Source: a virus (Duplodnaviria; Heunggongvirae; Uroviricota; Caudoviricetes). Taken from it: DNA of 10,789 bases. Position numbers and translations under genes: made by a program. A model generated the notes under the pieces. It worked only from the letters and a program-made list of their open reading frames with translations. It did no database searches and was not told the DNA's origin. The stretch spans positions 1-10,789 of IMG/VR virus record IMGVR_UViG_2541047124_000012. One strand, written 5' to 3'. How positions within the stretch are numbered: position 1 is the stretch's first letter; each line of letters starts with the position of its first letter. This document shows, piece after piece, positions 398 to 5,155 of this stretch.

Positions 398-934
398 TTA
401 ACTTTTCATCGCTTCGTTATGGGGCATGGTTGGGGCAAACTCGCTTAACTGTGTATTTAACAGCGTTACCTGCGCATTATTATTTTCTGACATCCATTTC
501 CCGTACACCTGAAACACCATTTGCGCATCTGCATGGCCCATCTGGTTTGCAATGAATGCCGGGTTAGCTCCTGCTGTTAACGACCAGCAGGCATAAGTGT
601 GTCTCGACTGATACGATTTGCGATGGCGGATTCCGGCACGCTTTACCGCTGCGTCCCACATCTGCCTTATTGAGTCAACGGTAAAATGGTCGCCATAATT
701 TTTTACTTTCGCTGACACTTCAGGTTGAAAAACAAAGGTACATTTTTGTTTCTCTGTTCTGCCGAATTCTCTGAGGTGAACATCGATGATATGCTCTTTG
801 CTCAGTCTCGTTAGTGCCATCTGACTCCGGAGAGCGTCGATTGCGGGCTTAATAAGGTGAATCACACGATTGGTTCCCGCCTGTGTTTTTGGTACTGTAA
901 AACGGTCTTTTGCCAGATTTCTTCTGATTATCAT
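398..934 (-). CDS. Tyrosine recombinase (phage integrase family), catalytic domain only
   Basis: Track ORF 398..949. Catalytic residues readable in the translation: R in GTNRVIHL, H-x-x-R in SRHTYACW, H in QMGHAD, nucleophile Y in VFQVYGKW. I place the start at ATG 934..932, which overlaps the TGA stop (933..931) of the upstream gene; the track start at 949 is a TTG. No N-terminal arm-binding or core-binding domain is present. Confidence 0.8.
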   Translation of the reverse strand: MIIRRNLAKDRFTVPKTQAGTNRVIHLIKPAIDALRSQMALTRLSKEHIIDVHLREFGRTEKQKCTFVFQPEVSAKVKNYGDHFTVDSIRQMWDAAVKRAGIRHRKSYQSRHTYACWSLTAGANPAFIANQMGHADAQMVFQVYGKWMSENNNAQVTLLNTQLSEFAPTMPHNEAMKS

Positions 935-2175
935 TCTGCCATTGCGCAAGATGGTTGCGGTTTTTCTTCATCATTTTCTTCTTCTGTTTCCTGCTTAGCA
1001 GACAGTTCGCGGTTAACTTCTTCCAGGATATCTTTTTCCGGTGTATGTCGTGCAGCAGTGAGAGTTTCCTTGCTGGGGTTCTCGTGATCAGTCTCCGTTA
1101 AGTAGGCGTTGATATACCCCTGAAGGCGTCCCGGGTAGTGATAAAACTCAGGGTGAGCGCTCCGGATAAGTGCAAAAATAGCGGCGCGGGAATAGTCCAG
1201 AATACCCGGGGTTGCGCGAAGTGCTGCGGACCATTCTTTGAACGGACTTTCTCTTTTCAGGACGATTTCTTTTGCGCGACGATAAACGCTGCCCGGAATT
1301 TCATAAATATTAAAATCCATCGGAAGTGTGGCTGCTGCAATCTCCACATCCAGCGTATCGAAGGTGTGTACTAAATTCGGATTGCGATCGGTTTTGTTCC
1401 CGCCACCGGCATTTGCACCGGAAGCCGTACGGGTGATACGCGAAACACGATTTCCTTTCATCCACTCTTTTGTCAGCAGACCCCGATCAGTGTAGTCAGC
1501 GTCCAGGTATGCCTCGAAAAAAGCAGTTATCAGTCCCAGGTCTGAATTACCGGGATTAGGGAAAACTTTGTCTGTGTCGCGTACCAGTTTGTGAAGGTCG
1601 CGAATCTCCAGCGGGTCGAGCAGCTTTGTTTTGTGAGAAATGGCCAGGGCAGTAACAGCCGGCAGTTCTTCCGCCCGTGCTATATGTAATGCCTGAAGTT
1701 CTTCCCGTGCAACGTGCGTTACCGGTTTTTCGCTGCCATGTTGCGCAAGCCAGCGAATGGGCAGTTCCTGACCGGAAATCGGCAGGAGCATATTATCCTC
1801 AATCTCAGCCATGTCTTCGCCATTGACGTTGGTATTGTCAGAGCTGGCTGGTTTGTCCTGAACTGAGGGGGAAGGCGCTATAAATATCATTGTGATGCCA
1901 TCTTCCCCGCCTTTTTCATAGCGGTTGCAGAATTCAGTATCGAACACACCTTCAGGCGGCAGGTCATTAACAATGGGCAAATTCACGCGAACAGGTTTTT
2001 TGAAATCCTCTTCGTCAAATCCAGCATCGTCCATTGCGACAACACCCCGTGATATTGCAACCGATAATTTTTTTGCTGTGCGCCAGTAAAAACCGCCTTT
2101 AATCCCAAGGCGTTTTCTGACTTTGTCATTTTTGGCTTCGTAATACAGTGCAATTTCTTCTTTATCAGTGCTCAT
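931..2175 (-). CDS. Hypothetical protein, 414 aa, translationally coupled to the downstream recombinase catalytic-domain gene
   Basis: Long uninterrupted minus-strand ORF; stop overlaps the recombinase ATG (ATGA). Acidic C-terminal tail (EEENDEEKPQPS). No motif I can assign to a family. Confidence 0.8.
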   Translation of the reverse strand: MSTDKEEIALYYEAKNDKVRKRLGIKGGFYWRTAKKLSVAISRGVVAMDDAGFDEEDFKKPVRVNLPIVNDLPPEGVFDTEFCNRYEKGGEDGITMIFIAPSPSVQDKPASSDNTNVNGEDMAEIEDNMLLPISGQELPIRWLAQHGSEKPVTHVAREELQALHIARAEELPAVTALAISHKTKLLDPLEIRDLHKLVRDTDKVFPNPGNSDLGLITAFFEAYLDADYTDRGLLTKEWMKGNRVSRITRTASGANAGGGNKTDRNPNLVHTFDTLDVEIAAATLPMDFNIYEIPGSVYRRAKEIVLKRESPFKEWSAALRATPGILDYSRAAIFALIRSAHPEFYHYPGRLQGYINAYLTETDHENPSKETLTAARHTPEKDILEEVNRELSAKQETEEENDEEKPQPSCAMAE

Positions 2176-2267: not shown

Positions 2268-2456
2268 TTATCCAGCCGGTATTTCGTTATTCAGGTACAG
2301 CGATACTTTGTTTAACGGGAGACATTCACCGGAAATTTTTTGCTCGTCTCTTGCCTGATGGCAGGATTCTTTACTGGCATAAATTCCGGTAATCACATTC
2401 TGTGGCTCACCTGTTATAAGAAAAACCGTCATCATCAGTGCAAATGCTGAAGTCAT
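2268..2456 (-). CDS. Small protein, 62 aa, with hydrophobic N-terminal segment (signal peptide or single transmembrane helix) and two Cys
   Basis: Track ORF; ATG 2456..2454 overlaps the TGA stop of the upstream ORF (ATGA). N-terminus MTSAFALMMTVFLITG is hydrophobic. AT-rich. Confidence 0.5.
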   Translation of the reverse strand: MTSAFALMMTVFLITGEPQNVITGIYASKESCHQARDEQKISGECLPLNKVSLYLNNEIPAG

Positions 2457-2641
2457 TGACGTTCTCCGAAAATACCAAGTTCAAGAAGGGCAATTCGGGA
2501 AAGTATGGAATTATCATTGAGCAGATAAGGCTCATATTTCCTCATATTAATGGCATCTTCAGTAAACTCCCGGTTACTGAGCAGAACACCAATATCAAAA
2601 CAACCTTCAGACGTATTAACGTTTGGTAATAACGTTTCCAT
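2453..2641 (-). CDS. Small hypothetical protein, 62 aa, first gene of a two-gene overlapping pair
   Basis: Track ORF; ATG at 2641..2639 preceded on the minus strand by GAGGA with 7-nt spacing; stop overlaps the start of ORF 2268..2456. Confidence 0.55.
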   Translation of the reverse strand: METLLPNVNTSEGCFDIGVLLSNREFTEDAINMRKYEPYLLNDNSILSRIALLELGIFGERQ

Positions 2642-2825
2642 TATCGCGTCCTCAACAATGAATTTTGTGATGCAGTGCCTGGTGCCTCCAGGTGACGTTA
2701 ACCAGTTAACAATTAACGTCGGGTTAGTTGATGCTCGTTACGCCAGTAAAAGACCGCCTTACTGCTTTAACTGTTCCGCGTGCGCATAGCCGCATTCACC
2801 GCATCACAAAATTCACTTTAAAAAG

Positions 2826-2845
2826 GGCGGATATCCATTTCCGCC
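2826..2845 (-). terminator. Candidate minus-strand intrinsic terminator
   Basis: Hairpin GGCGGA / loop TATCCATT / TCCGCC; on the minus strand it is followed by CTTTTTAAAG. Lies inside the 553-bp spacer with no ORF upstream of it on that strand. Confidence 0.3.
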
Positions 2846-3194
2846 GAATCACCAGAAAAGTGATAACAGAGGTTGTTGTGGCTGGGGTGTCACTTAAGCG
2901 TATGGTCAACCTGACAACCCGGTGTCCTCAACGGGGGAAGGAATAACCCCGCCATACTTACCGCCGCGCCATTTCGCGGATTGCCACAACCGGAAGCGCA
3001 CGGTCGAATTAAATTTAACGACGGCTCTAAGGGAGAAGGACTTCGCCGTGCACTTTCGTGTTATGCCCTGACTTTTCAGGGATATATCCTTTCAGTAAAC
3101 TGTCAGTGCCGGATTCTTATCTGTGTCCGGCGCACGACCACACGTAGCAGCGTGTTGGTCTCCATTTTTAATTCAGCCCTTAATGGAGGATAAA

Positions 3195-3380
3195 ATGCCA
3201 AACAAACCATGCCCTGCCTGTAACGCTCTTTCTGGCTTTTTAGAGAAGGGCGGTTATTACATTTTTAACTGTCCAGAACATGTTGAATTTCATATATCAA
3301 AACTTGACAGTATCATTACAAAGCCAAATCAGTATCAGTCTGATTTACTGAATAAAGAGTTAAACGCCGCCCGAGATTAA
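3195..3380 (+). CDS. Small putative zinc-ribbon protein, 61 aa (C-x2-C ... C-x2-H)
   Basis: Internal start of track ORF 3123..3380: ATG 3195 is preceded by GGAGGA (3185..3190). Translation MPNKPCPACNALSGFLEKGGYYIFNCPEHVEFH... contains CPAC and CPEH. AT-rich. Confidence 0.5.
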   Translation: MPNKPCPACNALSGFLEKGGYYIFNCPEHVEFHISKLDSIITKPNQYQSDLLNKELNAARD

Positions 3381-3566
3381 GGGCGTAGTGGCCCATTAAA
3401 AATATTGCAAAGACCAACTATTGTTGAACTGGATTAAACCAGTAATTCTCTATTGCTCTTATTGTTACCATCGGATGATTGCCGGGGGTTATTTTAAGTT
3501 CGGGAGGAAAAGGCTCTCCATCAGCAGCCATCATTGAGTATGTGAAATCCGCCGACGCAGTCCCTT

Positions 3567-3956
3567 TCATGATAATTCCGAATTTTTCAAGTAATGAGAG
3601 CAGTTCCGGTAATCCTGTGTCATCTGAATAACTTTCCTCATAGAAAGAAGCGATTGCCGCAGGAGATGACAGTTCTCGCTCTGCAATTTTTTTGTAGTTT
3701 TCCAGAATTCTTTTTTTGAATACTTTTCCTCGACATGAAAACCCATCACCGAGGCAATCCGCTTTGCAGTTTCTTCAGTATTCTGGTTGTTTGTTACCGA
3801 AACAGAGTACAATCCGGTAAACGCATCGCGCACATTACGAGCCATATTATCAATGTATTTCTTCGTTGCAGATTCTAATTCAACTTCGTTCAGACGTTGG
3901 TGAAGTGCATGTGCTGCAATTTCCTGGATTTCTTTTAGTAAATCTTTAAATTCCAT
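3567..3956 (-). CDS. Hypothetical protein, 129 aa, in the leftward operon downstream of the repressor
   Basis: Track ORF; ATG 3956..3954 preceded by GGAG 8 nt upstream on the minus strand. Contains two A7 homopolymer tracts in the coding strand (plus-strand T7 at 3677..3683 and 3711..3717). Confidence 0.65.
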   Translation of the reverse strand: MEFKDLLKEIQEIAAHALHQRLNEVELESATKKYIDNMARNVRDAFTGLYSVSVTNNQNTEETAKRIASVMGFHVEEKYSKKEFWKTTKKLQSENCHLLRQSLLSMRKVIQMTQDYRNCSHYLKNSELS

Positions 3957-3967
3957 CTTTAACTCCG

Positions 3968-4096
3968 TTAGTCGTTAGATTTTGCCGAACTGGAAAGCGC
4001 CTGTTTAAACTCACTGAAGCTGAGAGCTTCCTCGCCTTCGGCAAGGCCTTCGAAGTATTCTTCGTAAGCCTTTTCCATGATTGTGTCGAAATCCAT
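3968..4096 (-). CDS. Small acidic hypothetical protein, 42 aa
   Basis: Hand translation MDFDTIMEKAYEEYFEGLAEGEEALSFSEFKQALSSSAKSND; ATG 4096..4094 lies 1 nt after the stop of the upstream ORF and is preceded by AGGTGA. Below the size cut-off of the ORF track. Confidence 0.4.
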   Translation of the reverse strand: MDFDTIMEKAYEEYFEGLAEGEEALSFSEFKQALSSSAKSND

Positions 4097-4097
4097 A

Positions 4098-4253
4098 TCA
4101 CTCACCTGAGTTTCTTTCCAGCCAGCGACGGGCACCATTTTCGGTTTTAAACGTTTTGCTTTTGGTATACGTCATCGCGGTGAACGTGCCGTCCTGGTTG
4201 GGGAACACGCCACATACCAGAGATTCGCTGTTGCCAAGATCGATAGTATCCAT
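4098..4253 (-). CDS. Small hypothetical protein, 51 aa if started at ATG 4253 (the track ORF extends to a TTG at 4358, 86 aa)
   Basis: Track ORF 4098..4358 begins at TTG with no SD. The in-frame ATG at 4253..4251 has a GAGG 5 nt upstream on the minus strand, so I prefer the shorter form. Confidence 0.5.
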   Translation of the reverse strand: MDTIDLGNSESLVCGVFPNQDGTFTAMTYTKSKTFKTENGARRWLERNSGE

Positions 4254-4368
4254 GCTGACCTCATTTCCCCTTAACGCCGGGTAGCGGAACTGTTTGCTGA
4301 GAACACCGTGCGGTGTCTTGATGGGTGGTAATTTAGTTTTCTCATGAATGTTGGTCAAGTATTTTTAA

Positions 4369-4381
4369 TGAGAAAGCTCAA
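4369..4381. promoter_or_regulatory. Operator-like site TGAGAAAGCTCAA (left copy), between repressor stop and the leftward operon
   Basis: 12 of 13 identical to TGAGAAAACTCAA at 4902..4914; imperfect palindrome TGAG-N5-CTCA; flanked by repeated TTTAATG (4364..4370 and 4384..4390). Confidence 0.4.
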
Positions 4382-4442
4382 TATTTAATGCAAAATAAAG
4401 CCAATACATTGAAATGTAAGGCTTTAAAATTTGTGAAGGGGG

Positions 4443-4850
4443 TTACTGATGTTTGTTACGTTTGCGAGCTTCTAGTAGCTCGGTGAATAGGCGATTAAAA
4501 TTCTCAACGCGGGCACGGAGTTCGCTGATTTGTGCTTGCTGCTCTGATTTTGGAAGTGCGCGATACAATCGCAACATCTCCAACTCATCTTCCGATAAGT
4601 CTAAGGCGCTGTTGAGTGCAACTGGTGGATCTGGTGTTTTATCCTCGTCACCAAACAGTATCCAAGTTGGTGAACATTGCAATACCTCAGCCAGGCGATG
4701 CAAATTTTGCCCGCGCGGGGCTGTATGGTCGCTTTCCCATAGTGAAATTGATGAGCCAGATACGCCAGCGGCTTTGCTTAAATCGTTTTGACTTAAACCA
4801 ACCTGTTTGCGTCTTTCTCTAATTCGTTGACCTAAAGTTTTCTCGTTCAT
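4443..4850 (-). CDS. CI-like prophage repressor, XRE-family HTH, 135 aa, without a LexA/S24-type peptidase domain
   Basis: Track ORF; N-terminal HTH (LGQRIRERRKQVGLSQNDLSKAAGVSGSSISLWE) and a helical C-terminal region; divergent from the Cro-like gene. ATG follows the switch region with almost no leader. Confidence 0.85.
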   Translation of the reverse strand: MNEKTLGQRIRERRKQVGLSQNDLSKAAGVSGSSISLWESDHTAPRGQNLHRLAEVLQCSPTWILFGDEDKTPDPPVALNSALDLSEDELEMLRLYRALPKSEQQAQISELRARVENFNRLFTELLEARKRNKHQ

Positions 4851-4871: not shown

Positions 4872-4914
4872 TTGACTTGAGATTCCTTGAGTGATTACTA
4901 TTGAGAAAACTCAA
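4872..4914 (+). promoter_or_regulatory. Candidate rightward promoter (pR-like) with overlapping operator-like palindrome
   Basis: -35 TTGACT (4872..4877), 18-bp spacer, -10 TACTAT (4896..4901), then TGAGAAAACTCAA (4902..4914) containing the perfect inverted repeat TTGAG-AAAA-CTCAA. Confidence 0.45.
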
Positions 4915-4927
4915 CTTTGGAGGGGTG

Positions 4928-5155
4928 ATGTTTAAATCAGACGTAATTAATTTTTATGGGACGAAAGCCAAAGTAGCGAAAGCTGCTGGTGTTGATCCAT
5001 CTGCTGTTTCTCAATGGGGGGAACTGGTTCCTGAAGGTCGCGCGATGCGCCTGCAAGAGGCATCCGGCGGGGAACTTCAGTACGACCCCAAAGTTTATGA
5101 CGAATATCGTAAGGCAAAGCGGGCGGGGCGGTTGAACAATGAAAATCACCACTGA
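4928..5155 (+). CDS. Cro/YdaS-like small HTH regulator
   Basis: In-frame ATG 4928 preceded by GGAGG (4919..4923); the track ORF starts at TTG 4901. Segment AKAAGVDPSAVSQW resembles the Cro/YdaS family pattern as I recall it. Divergent from the repressor. Confidence 0.75.
   Translation: MFKSDVINFYGTKAKVAKAAGVDPSAVSQWGELVPEGRAMRLQEASGGELQYDPKVYDEYRKAKRAGRLNNENHH

Follow-up and report, generated by a model that had tools for sequence, protein, structure and literature searches.

The window analysed here, a stretch of 10,789 nucleotides of viral DNA, carries on its minus strand, between positions 3567 and 4442, a trio of small open reading frames (ORFs), each preceded by a Shine-Dalgarno (SD) sequence, of which the first ATG lies 189 nt past the stop codon of a repressor gene and behind operator-like sites. 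The question raised by this locus is whether these ORFs form an operon of unknown genes, as an earlier note on this DNA had it, or belong to a system that has already been described. The region very probably comprises the promoter of an early-left operon of the dicBF type, together with its first three cistrons, in a lambdoid prophage that resembles Qin and is probably defective, a reading directly supported by the gene identities, the synteny, the promoter and operator architecture with its covariation, the frameshift in the third gene and the coding constraint. The genes concerned are as follows:

4928..5155, plus strand: Cro/DicC-like gene, divergent from the repressor gene, ATG at 4928
4443..4850, minus strand: DicA-family immunity repressor, 135 aa
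4098..4253, minus strand: ydfA, 51 aa, DUF1391, SD GAGG at 4262-4259
3968..4096, minus strand: ydfB, 42 aa, acidic (pI 4.05), SD AGGTGAG at 4107-4101
3567..3956, minus strand: gene 3, 129-aa truncated allele, SD GGAG at 3966-3963

The ORFs are packed as tightly as had been described, with gaps of 1 nt between ydfA and ydfB and of 11 nt between ydfB and gene 3. The first two are not unknown genes, as had been claimed, but ydfA and ydfB of the dicBF operon. YdfA matches Pfam PF07151 with 94 bits and is 96% identical to K-12 YdfA, and YdfB falls in phrog_2061 and matches K-12 YdfB at 41 of its 42 residues. The repressor was assigned to NCBIfam NF007257, 'transcriptional repressor DicA' (238 bits, the cutoff being 101), and to Pfam HTH_3, and is 56% identical to K-12 DicA, while the divergent gene matches Pfam P22_Cro (1.4e-17) and is 71% identical to K-12 DicC; a TTG at 4901, upstream of its ATG, falls within an operator. 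After the repressor, the cistron order in the window is ydfA, ydfB, gene 3, a DicF-like sRNA, dicB and a ydfD-like gene, which is the order annotated for dicC/dicA/ydfA/ydfB/ydfC/dicF/dicB/ydfD in the Qin prophage of K-12, except that the third gene differs. Since its first ORFs are ydfA and ydfB of a known operon, the locus is an ordinary one, of the long-known, repressor-controlled dicBF type.

A predicted promoter and two operator-like sites lie between the repressor gene and ydfA, as in the dicBF operon, and make up the following control region together with the operator on the far side of the repressor gene:

4901..4914, unstranded: operator TTGAGAAAACTCAA, a perfect palindrome located at the rightward promoter
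4390..4426, minus strand: terminator-like hairpin with AUUUUG, just past the repressor stop codon
4368..4381, unstranded: operator-like site OL2, ATGAGAAAGCTCAA, a repeat of TTGAGAAAACTCAA that precedes the -35 hexamer by about 10 bp
4330..4358, minus strand: predicted pL-type promoter, dicBp homologue, with -35 TTGACC (4358-4353), a 17-nt spacer and -10 TAAATT (4335-4330)
4332..4345, unstranded: operator-like site OL1, TTTAGTTTTCTCAT, overlapping the spacer and the -10 hexamer
4254..4323, minus strand: conserved 5' leader with a hairpin GACACC-GCAC-GGUGUU (4317-4302), its start near 4323 being predicted

The palindrome TTGAGAAAACTCAA aligns with the position of the K-12 DicA operator Oc, TTGTTAGTCATAACTAACAA, which is experimentally supported and tested (PMC3441716). 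The second operator copy that had been noticed downstream of the repressor gene is real, and two operator-like sites, OL2 and OL1, surround the sigma-70-like promoter; no clear counterpart of the third K-12 operator was seen. A loose operator pattern occurred 7 times in the window where 5.7 were expected, which is no enrichment, and the sites are supported not by the pattern count but by their position and their covariation with repressor type in related loci. Across 97 such loci the operator sequence differs by repressor type whereas its position is constant, the position homologous to OL2 holding a palindrome specific to the repressor type and OL1 likewise covarying at a fixed position, and each of four DicA-type immunity groups has its own pair of palindromes at the same two positions. 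The -35 hexamer is kept in K-12, NY1601 and most DicA-type loci, and the 70-nt leader is near-identical in K-12 and NY1601. Because the TTG at 4358 is the -35 hexamer, the 51-aa reading of ydfA is the right one and the 86-aa alternative that had been offered beside it, starting at that TTG, is wrong, in agreement with a Pfam match that covers residues 37-84 of the longer reading. The leader was also considered as a nut/boxB-like site and rejected: its hairpin, of 6 bp with a 4-nt loop, is not boxB-like, the leader as a whole has no unusual structure (fold z = 0.52), no N-like protein is present and no nut site was identified.

This architecture also bears on a second claim, namely that the genes might be expressed in the lysogen as superinfection-exclusion or defence genes like rexAB or sieB, transcribed with the repressor gene or from a constitutive promoter. 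As in lambda rexAB and sieB, they lie directly downstream of the repressor gene on the same strand, but in the window the terminator-like hairpin (-12.3 kcal/mol, z = -3.74, 0 of 200 shuffles as good), which has an analogue after K-12 dicA, comes between the repressor gene and the promoter, and the operators overlap the -10 hexamer and the spacer and flank the -35 hexamer. RexB and SieB are membrane proteins, whereas the products of the small ORFs are predicted to be soluble, with no hydrophobic segment (maximum Kyte-Doolittle 19-residue mean ≤ 0.48), and none of them is matched by a defence family in PADLOC. Detectable amounts of ydfA transcript and of DicF are present in stationary-phase K-12 cells that were not artificially induced, which would fit lysogenic expression, but the homologous operon is repressed by DicA, deletion of dicA leading to a 22-fold derepression (PMC10448788). 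Likewise, the expressed operon does confer phage resistance, but via DicB, exclusion in K-12 being DicB-dependent and mapping to dicB and not to ydfABC (PMC6832061). The exclusion reading is disfavoured on these grounds and is very unlikely to apply to this locus.

That a dicBF-type operon begins here leaves the question of whether its first cistrons act as proteins. It could be argued that they matter as RNA, the ydfA-ydfB-gene 3 segment being a long 5' precursor for DicF and dicB and its peptides functionless. Such a reading would accommodate the loss of toxicity of the induced K-12 operon once dicF and dicB are deleted (PMC5069750), the absence of ydfB from some operons among the 97 loci, the free exchange of the third slot and the retention of the module in the window even though gene 3 is broken. 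The patterns of variation among related loci, however, point to selection on the proteins: pN/pS is 0.10 for ydfA, where 17 of the 25 variable sites are third codon positions, a sign of strong purifying selection, and 0.25 for ydfB, a sign of moderate constraint. On the strength of these ratios ydfA and ydfB are coding. Furthermore, each ORF has a well-spaced SD sequence, and ydfA is the first gene after the repressor, and co-oriented with it, in all 97 loci surveyed, a position that it holds in six or more immunity types and with several kinds of leader. A role as precursor RNA alone is therefore highly improbable.

Profile searches linked YdfA to DUF1391 and to PHROGs without a function, and returned no informative family for YdfB in Pfam, NCBIfam, PHROGs or PADLOC; a sequence search of the PDB gave nothing credible for the small proteins. 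Comparison with Pfam, NCBIfam and PHROGs showed no resemblance of these genes to N, as had been noted earlier, nor to Kil or CIII, and the N-terminus of YdfA is not arginine-rich. Separately, YdfA showed a non-significant similarity to a phage head decoration protein (E = 0.32), which might relate to the label 'head-DNA stabilization protein D' in some phage records. YdfA and YdfB are real, conserved small proteins, predicted to be soluble, that would be made at the start of induction; as to their biochemical roles, we infer that they most probably act as dispensable modulators of host or phage processes and not as toxins.

The third gene departs from the K-12 order. Its 129-aa product, identical to the O157:H7 hypothetical protein WP_000394511, has no similarity to YdfC by BLASTP (E = 2.8), so that, to judge by sequence, the third gene of the window is not ydfC and is unrelated to it; the third slot varies across the 97 loci, and ydfC is thus not universal in the dicBF family. 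Three features lie within the gene and beyond it:

3711..3717, minus strand: first A7 tract, in frame (Lys-Lys), also kept in intact alleles
3687..3693, minus strand: second A7 tract, A_AAA_AAA in the 0 frame, site of a 1-nt deletion relative to an in-frame A8
3418..3686, minus strand: orphaned gene 3 C-terminal domain, an uninterrupted run of 89 codons in the -1 frame, ending with a 50-aa ORF (3570-3418)

Intact homologues of gene 3 are single ORFs of 177-186 aa, with an A8 or without the tract; at the DNA level, the A7 of the window corresponds to A8 in three intact relatives (L004-L006), and NY1601 lacks the tract. A protein reconstructed by restoring the -1 frame matches a protein of 179 aa (P0001) from end to end, with 94% identity. 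A 1-nt deletion, A8 to A7, thus makes the 129-aa protein a truncated product, with residues 1-90 authentic and residues 91-129 out of frame, and the ORF that overlaps its stop codon its orphaned C-terminus. The further ORF that had been suspected over this stop codon is indeed this 50-aa ORF, overlapping in ATGA and called elsewhere as a separate protein (P0121). By comparison with its homologues, gene 3 encodes about 180 aa when intact, and a frameshift has cut the allele in the window short. Both A7 tracts that had been flagged as slippage-prone are present and one of them is meaningful, as the site of a fixed 1-nt deletion; slipping or variability in the population was not seen. Exact-match probes for A6, A7 and A8 matched 0, 384 and 0 of the 386 carrier genomes, by which a phase-variable homopolymer was ruled out, and the A7 allele is fixed, the 384 complete genomes that carry it spanning several serotypes. 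An A6 allele (P0011) occurs in the wider protein collection.

The same allele could, in principle, be functional by recoding, programmed -1 frameshifting on A_AAA_AAA or transcriptional slippage yielding both the 129-aa and a 179-aa protein. The tract lies in a perfect slippery context (ACA AAA AAA TTG at 3695-3684, an X_XXY_YYZ heptamer in the 0 frame), a -1 shift yields exactly the protein of the intact A8 allele, and the -1 frame, open over its 89 codons, encodes a conserved C-terminal domain, as in genes with programmed -1 frameshifting such as dnaX and those of IS1 and the IS3 family. A-rich heptamers in E. coli allow low-level -1 shifting even without stimulators. Unlike in dnaX, IS1 and the IS3 family, no stable structure was predicted downstream of the tract (100 nt, z = 0.17, 104 of 200 shuffles folding as well) and no GGAGG-like, SD-like stimulator was present within 15 nt upstream of it; lacking a stimulatory RNA structure, programmed frameshifting is unlikely. 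The split arrangement is not conserved either, since the homologues are contiguous ORFs. In the lineage of the window, the C-terminal part has accumulated two nonsynonymous changes and one synonymous change, and one of the former, R to M, alters a residue that is invariant in all intact homologues. A module of 99% identity has spread recently, which accounts for the constancy of the A7 allele among the 384 genomes that might otherwise be taken as a sign of function. Recoding at the tract is accordingly most unlikely.

Read as a truncated allele, gene 3 belongs to a family which combines a conserved N-terminal region, with an invariant core of about 55 aa, with variable C-termini. When 1.84 billion representatives were searched exhaustively by HMMER, an intact homologue returned 31 matches, nearly all restricted to the N-terminal region and none of them a known family, and Pfam, NCBIfam, PHROGs and PADLOC offered no informative family for it. 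AF2 models were of low to moderate confidence and reached a pLDDT of 50 with a 9-sequence alignment and of 65 with a 56-sequence alignment, only an N-terminal two-helix hairpin attaining about 80, and a Foldseek search of the model against the PDB found nothing below E = 3. It is proposed that gene 3 occupies a variable cargo slot, filled by ydfC in K-12, and that its family consists of an N-terminal helical hairpin with interchangeable C-terminal domains. Going further, it is conceivable but quite improbable that this is an unrecognised modular family of early-left effectors, with an N-hairpin (MEFKDLP..IQ.IAA..L...NVRDAFTGLY) and swappable C-domains, perhaps for anti-defence or inter-phage competition, in which the A7 allele would be a functional split with both halves made. 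The N-module could then be the 129-aa product and the C-module could arise from ATGA-coupled re-initiation or from low-level -1 slippage, and the C-domain of the window may be paired with a co-inherited antisense zinc-ribbon ORF.

The operon does not stop at 3567, as the earlier delimitation had implied, and runs on through the DicF-like sRNA, dicB and the ydfD-like gene, with the zinc-ribbon ORF facing it:

3195..3380, plus strand: convergent 61-aa ORF, zinc-ribbon-like (CPAC...CPEH), phrog_10133 (6.9e-51), an annotated CDS in O157
2822..2862, minus strand: predicted shortened DicF-like sRNA with 5' end UUUCUGGUGA, terminator hairpin at 2845-2826 and U5
2453..2641, minus strand: dicB, 62 aa, Pfam PF05358 (125 bits)
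2268..2456, minus strand: ydfD-like gene, DUF1482, Pfam PF07358 (54 bits)

The zinc-ribbon-like ORF is antisense in 8 of the 8 fetched loci that have the gene 3 C-domain; lying inside the transcription unit, it could hinder read-through to dicB. The DicF-like element occupies the position homologous to K-12 dicF; its flanks and its 5' end are conserved and a terminator is predicted, and it gave no match to Rfam DicF even at E ≤ 5. A sub-threshold Rfam match to STnc100 (29.5 bits, gathering score 47) lies over the conserved dicF-dicB spacer. In nearly all surveyed loci for which the fetched sequence was long enough, dicB follows.

With K-12 Qin the window shares the divergent Cro-like gene, the 135-aa repressor, the operator-bearing promoter, the almost identical -35 hexamer and leader, and an exonuclease and an integrase gene after the ydfD-like gene. 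It differs from K-12 Qin in immunity specificity, with operators of the form TTGAG..CTCAA against TTAGT..ACTAA; in the replacement of ydfC by an unrelated frameshifted gene and a convergent zinc-ribbon-like ORF; in a DicF-like element without the central and 3' part that in K-12 pairs with ftsZ (PMC5069750); and in the divergence of DicB and the YdfD-like protein, which are 63% and 47% identical to their K-12 counterparts. In prophages of STEC serotypes O157:H7, O103 and O121, window positions 3300-4290 are 99.2% identical, including the A7 allele of gene 3, and the immunity region is 91-93% identical in the functional phages HannyBb and mEp460_ev081. None of the complete E. coli genomes in the collection covers 80% or more of the window, the best covering 78% at 94.7% identity, and the only O157 copy examined (L001, strain PV15-279) has, unlike the window, a RelBE pair and a different repressor before ydfA. 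The comparison with lambda pL made earlier stands as regards position: as in the PL operons of lambda and P22, a leftward, operator-controlled promoter adjoins the repressor gene, with repeated operators; the operon carries small accessory genes and an inhibitor of cell division, which is Kil in lambda and DicB and DicF in the window, and genes for recombination lie further to the left (PMC6832061). Unlike those operons, the one in the window showed no homologue of N, Ral, CIII, Kil or Gam on comparison with Pfam, NCBIfam and PHROGs, and a repressor of the window type is short and of an antirepressor-controlled class without a RecA-cleavable C-terminal domain (PMC10448788).

In K-12, the dicBp promoter upstream of ydfA, its control by DicA and the polycistronic transcript were shown experimentally (PMC5069750, PMC10448788), the transcripts being ydfABC-dicF and ydfABC-dicFB-ydfD (PMC10448788). 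By analogy, we infer the same DicA-type repression and polycistronic transcription for the window. The repressor gene (4443-4850) would end at its own terminator-like hairpin, and the DicA-family repressor would bind the two operators that bracket and overlap the sigma-70 promoter at 4358-4330, so that the operon stays silent in the lysogen. Once repression is lifted, transcription would start near 4323; in K-12 this is brought about by an antirepressor or when the DicA/DicC switch flips spontaneously, both Rem as antirepressor and the bistability of the switch having been described there (PMC10448788). A single polycistronic RNA would then carry ydfA, ydfB, gene 3, a long untranslated stretch from which the DicF-like sRNA may be cut out, dicB and the ydfD-like gene, and gene 3 of the window would yield its N-terminal module with a 39-residue nonsense tail, leaving the C-terminal domain orphaned.

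An annotator should accordingly enter this stretch as the beginning of a dicBF operon and not as a new operon of unknown genes. What the analysis adds is the covariation of operators with repressor type across immunity groups, the recognition that the common 129-aa 'hypothetical protein' of O157 type comes from an allele truncated by a frameshift, and a shortened DicF-like element that is unannotated in about 440 complete genomes. YdfA and YdfB are true y-genes, and since they are conserved, look translated and always come first after the repressor, they are reasonable targets for functional work, a point that K-12 had already made clear. The dicBF operon matters both for host physiology and for the biology of EHEC, DicB and DicF blocking cell division, altering sugar uptake and excluding some phages.

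The three ORFs that follow the repressor gene are, very probably, the first cistrons of a DicA-type repressor-controlled early-left operon, namely ydfA, ydfB and a cargo gene that has degenerated. The repressor scores 238 bits against the NCBIfam DicA model (cutoff 101) and shares 56% identity with DicA of E. coli K-12, the divergent gene is a P22_Cro family member with 71% identity to DicC, ORF1 is a DUF1391 protein 96% identical to K-12 YdfA, and ORF2 has 41 of its 42 residues in common with K-12 YdfB. To the left of the 129-aa gene (gene 3) lie dicB (Pfam DicB, 125 bits), a DUF1482 gene whose product is 47% identical to YdfD and, further on, a truncated ExoVIII-like gene and an integrase fragment. 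The K-12 annotation follows the same order (dicC, dicA, ydfA, ydfB, ydfC, dicF, dicB, ydfD, ydfE, intQ). Together, gene identities and gene order identify the locus as the promoter-proximal part of a dicBF operon, of the kind known from the cryptic prophage Qin.

Features of the locus
4850-4443, minus strand: repressor gene, 135 aa, separated from the 51-aa ORF by a 189-nt spacer
4253-4098, minus strand: ORF1 (ydfA), 51 aa, SD GAGG
4096-3968, minus strand: ORF2 (ydfB), 42 aa, SD AGGTGAG, 1 nt past the ORF1 stop
3956-3567, minus strand: gene 3, 129 aa, SD GGAG, 11 nt past the ORF2 stop
3717-3711 and 3693-3687, minus strand: A7 tracts in gene 3
3570-3418, minus strand: 50-aa ORF whose own ATG overlaps the gene-3 stop
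3195-3380, plus strand: convergent 61-aa ORF, CPAC...CPEH, zinc-ribbon-like, phrog_10133, inside the leftward transcription unit

The layout described in the earlier note, with three head-to-tail minus-strand ORFs after the repressor, each with an SD and with gaps of 1-11 nt, was found as described, as were the two A7 tracts and a further ORF across the stop of the 129-aa gene. ORF1 had been given as 51 or 86 aa; the shorter reading is correct and the 86-aa form is ruled out, since its TTG coincides with the first half of the -35 hexamer and the Pfam match begins only at its residue 37.

A sigma-70-like promoter is predicted at 4358-4330 (minus strand), with -35 TTGACC, a 17-nt spacer and -10 TAAATT. 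The proposed second operator copy ahead of the operon is matched by two candidate sites resembling TTGAGAAAACTCAA, the perfect palindrome of the rightward promoter (4901-4914), one with a single mismatch a short way upstream of the -35 (4368-4381) and one with two mismatches covering the spacer and -10 (4332-4345). A loose operator pattern is not enriched over the window (7 matches against 5.7 expected), so support for these operators was taken from comparison with related loci. The -35 is common to the window, K-12 and NY1601, a strain with a related locus, and the 70-nt leader is nearly identical in all three. K-12 has TTAGT..ACTAA-type palindromes at the exact positions of the TGAGA..TCTCA-type of the window. 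The K-12 operator Oc, TTGTTAGTCATAACTAACAA, aligns with the perfect palindrome of the window, and DicA no longer binds Oc in vivo once a single base of it is changed (PMC3441716). A survey of 97 ydfA loci, taken from genomes and viral contigs, includes four immunity groups of DicA type; the palindrome pair is specific to each group but always occupies the same two positions around the -35. The repressor stop is followed directly by a hairpin and AUUUUG (4426-4390; z = -3.74, none of 200 shuffles folding as well), an argument for the operon being a transcription unit of its own. The leader (4254-4323) hardly varies between DicA-type immunity groups and contains a 6-bp hairpin at 4302-4317 (minus strand), GACACC GCAC GGUGUU, followed by UCUCAGCAAACAG.

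In Qin, dicBp lies upstream of ydfA and gives rise to ydfABC-dicF and ydfABC-dicFB-ydfD transcripts, deletion of dicA leads to 22-fold derepression, and induction involves the antirepressor Rem and a bistable DicA/DicC switch (PMC10448788). The toxicity of dicBF induction is lost on deletion of dicF and dicB (PMC5069750), and it is DicB that excludes ManYZ-dependent phages (PMC6832061). By analogy, these K-12 data argue that the ydfA, ydfB and gene-3 proteins, all predicted to be soluble, would not be toxic or exclusion components, and it is very improbable that the three are exclusion genes expressed in the lysogen. The stretch is also very unlikely to be a mere RNA leader: among unique alleles of the surveyed loci, pN/pS is 0.10 for ydfA, where third codon positions account for 17 of the 25 variable sites, and 0.25 for ydfB.

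In all 97 loci, ydfA is the first gene downstream of a co-oriented repressor, of which at least six types were seen. ydfB follows in most loci, is missing in some (L004-L006, L010, L012, L019) and occurs in many as a 1-34 fusion variant. A search for close relatives returned ydfA loci only from Escherichia and Shigella, apart from a few MAGs whose taxonomic labels are implausible. Where the prophage repressor is not of DicA type (L001, L036-L060 and others), a different, highly conserved leader of ~170 nt, CCCACCCCGCCCCACAGAATGCAGGGCAATACTTCGAG..., replaces the operator/promoter found upstream of ydfA in DicA-type loci and could be a structured RNA or antitermination element. Seven loci (L013-L018, L020) have a 44-aa ORF, MVHYEVVQYLMDCCGITYNQAVQALRSNDWDLWQAEVAIRSNKM, which uses the same ribosome-binding context and lies upstream of a ydfA-like gene 86% identical to ydfA, with no dicB within 4 kb; in the O157:H7 strain PV15-279 prophage, a relBE toxin-antitoxin pair is inserted between repressor and ydfA (L001, 7231-7709).

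The product of gene 3 is identical to an O157:H7 'hypothetical protein', and its homologue in NY1601 is a single 186-aa ORF. Aligned with it, both the window and O157 are shifted by 1 nt at the second A tract. A -1 shift at ACA AAA AAA TTG, one A being re-read, restores a 179-aa protein with 94% full-length identity to the intact 179-aa homologue P0001, and this reconstruction aligns end to end with eight further intact homologues of 177-186 aa. Comparison of the DNA at the tract shows ACTGCAAAAAAAATTGCAG (A8) in intact alleles and ACTACAAAAAAATTGCAG (A7) in the window. The '129-aa protein' is therefore read out of frame over residues 91-129, and the 50-aa ORF represents the end of the C-terminal domain that the gene originally encoded. 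Programmed frameshifting at this tract, where the -1 frame is open over 89 codons, is given little credence: no unusual folding is seen in the RNA downstream (z = 0.17), no SD-like element precedes the tract, and relatives are unsplit. Low-level -1 slippage at the heptamer is possible, and nothing points to programming. When exact-match A7, A8 and A6 probes of 91-93 nt were compared with 5,426 complete E. coli genomes, 386 carried the tract region, 384 of them with exactly A7 and none with an exact A8 or A6 allele, indicating a stable tract. Positions 3300-4290 share 99.2% identity with the O157, O103 and O121 copies. The orphaned C-part has acquired two nonsynonymous changes and one synonymous change in the window lineage, including an R to M change at a position that does not vary among the intact homologues, which points weakly towards relaxed constraint. 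It is concluded that the A7 allele is a frameshift mutation, now fixed, and that the module carrying it has spread recently.

Gene 3, in which the earlier note had recognised no motif, has no family in Pfam, NCBIfam or PADLOC, and its PHROGs matches are only of unknown function. It is not related to ydfC. Depending on the locus, ydfB is followed by ydfC, by ydfC with a gene for the N-terminal module, or by a gene with both N-terminal module and C-terminal domain. An exhaustive HMMER search yielded 31 representatives sharing only their N-terminal 55-90 residues, with many different C-termini or none. AF2 predicted a two-helix hairpin at residues 8-53 (pLDDT ~80), the remainder being poorly modelled, and the model has no significant match among PDB folds. 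The convergent zinc-ribbon-like ORF accompanies the gene in all eight fetched loci with the gene-3 C-terminal domain and could be a partner or antisense regulator.

The dicF position is occupied by TTTCTGGTGATTCGGCGGAAATGGATATCCGCCCTTTTT (2862-2822, minus strand), a putative shortened DicF-like sRNA. Its flanks are conserved, and it retains the 5' UUUCUGGUGA, with the first 10 nt of DicF intact, and a terminator, but it lacks the central and 3' part and goes unrecognised by the Rfam DicF model. K-12 DicF uses its 5' end to pair with xylR and pykA, and its 3' region to pair with ftsZ (PMC5069750); the short variant may by analogy have lost ftsZ control. About 442 of the 5,426 complete E. coli genomes match at least 80% of a 111-nt probe around the element, with no annotated feature under the match in the ten hits listed. 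The strongly conserved dicF-dicB spacer gives a sub-threshold Rfam match to STnc100 (2609-2827, minus strand; 29.5 bits, gathering score 47).

Elsewhere in the window, a hok/sok-type toxin-antitoxin element lies at 9731-10033 (plus strand; Rfam sok 103.9 bits), with a Hok-like ORF at 9821-10033. The 252-aa ORF at 8784-9542 (plus strand) is a candidate paa: where the best-matching O103:H2 prophage regions align, the annotated features include 'paa: AcfC family adhesin Paa'. The left end (398-2175, minus strand) looks degraded, with an ExoVIII/RecE-like ORF of 414 aa against 813-823 aa in relatives and only a fragment of the integrase left (398-949), which suggests a defective prophage.

Derepression of the operon would yield a single transcript supplying the small proteins, the DicF-like sRNA, DicB and the YdfD-like protein. 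dicBF itself is a known system; what is left as new is the modular, so far uncharacterised family to which gene 3 belongs, and the short variant of DicF, which lacks annotation.
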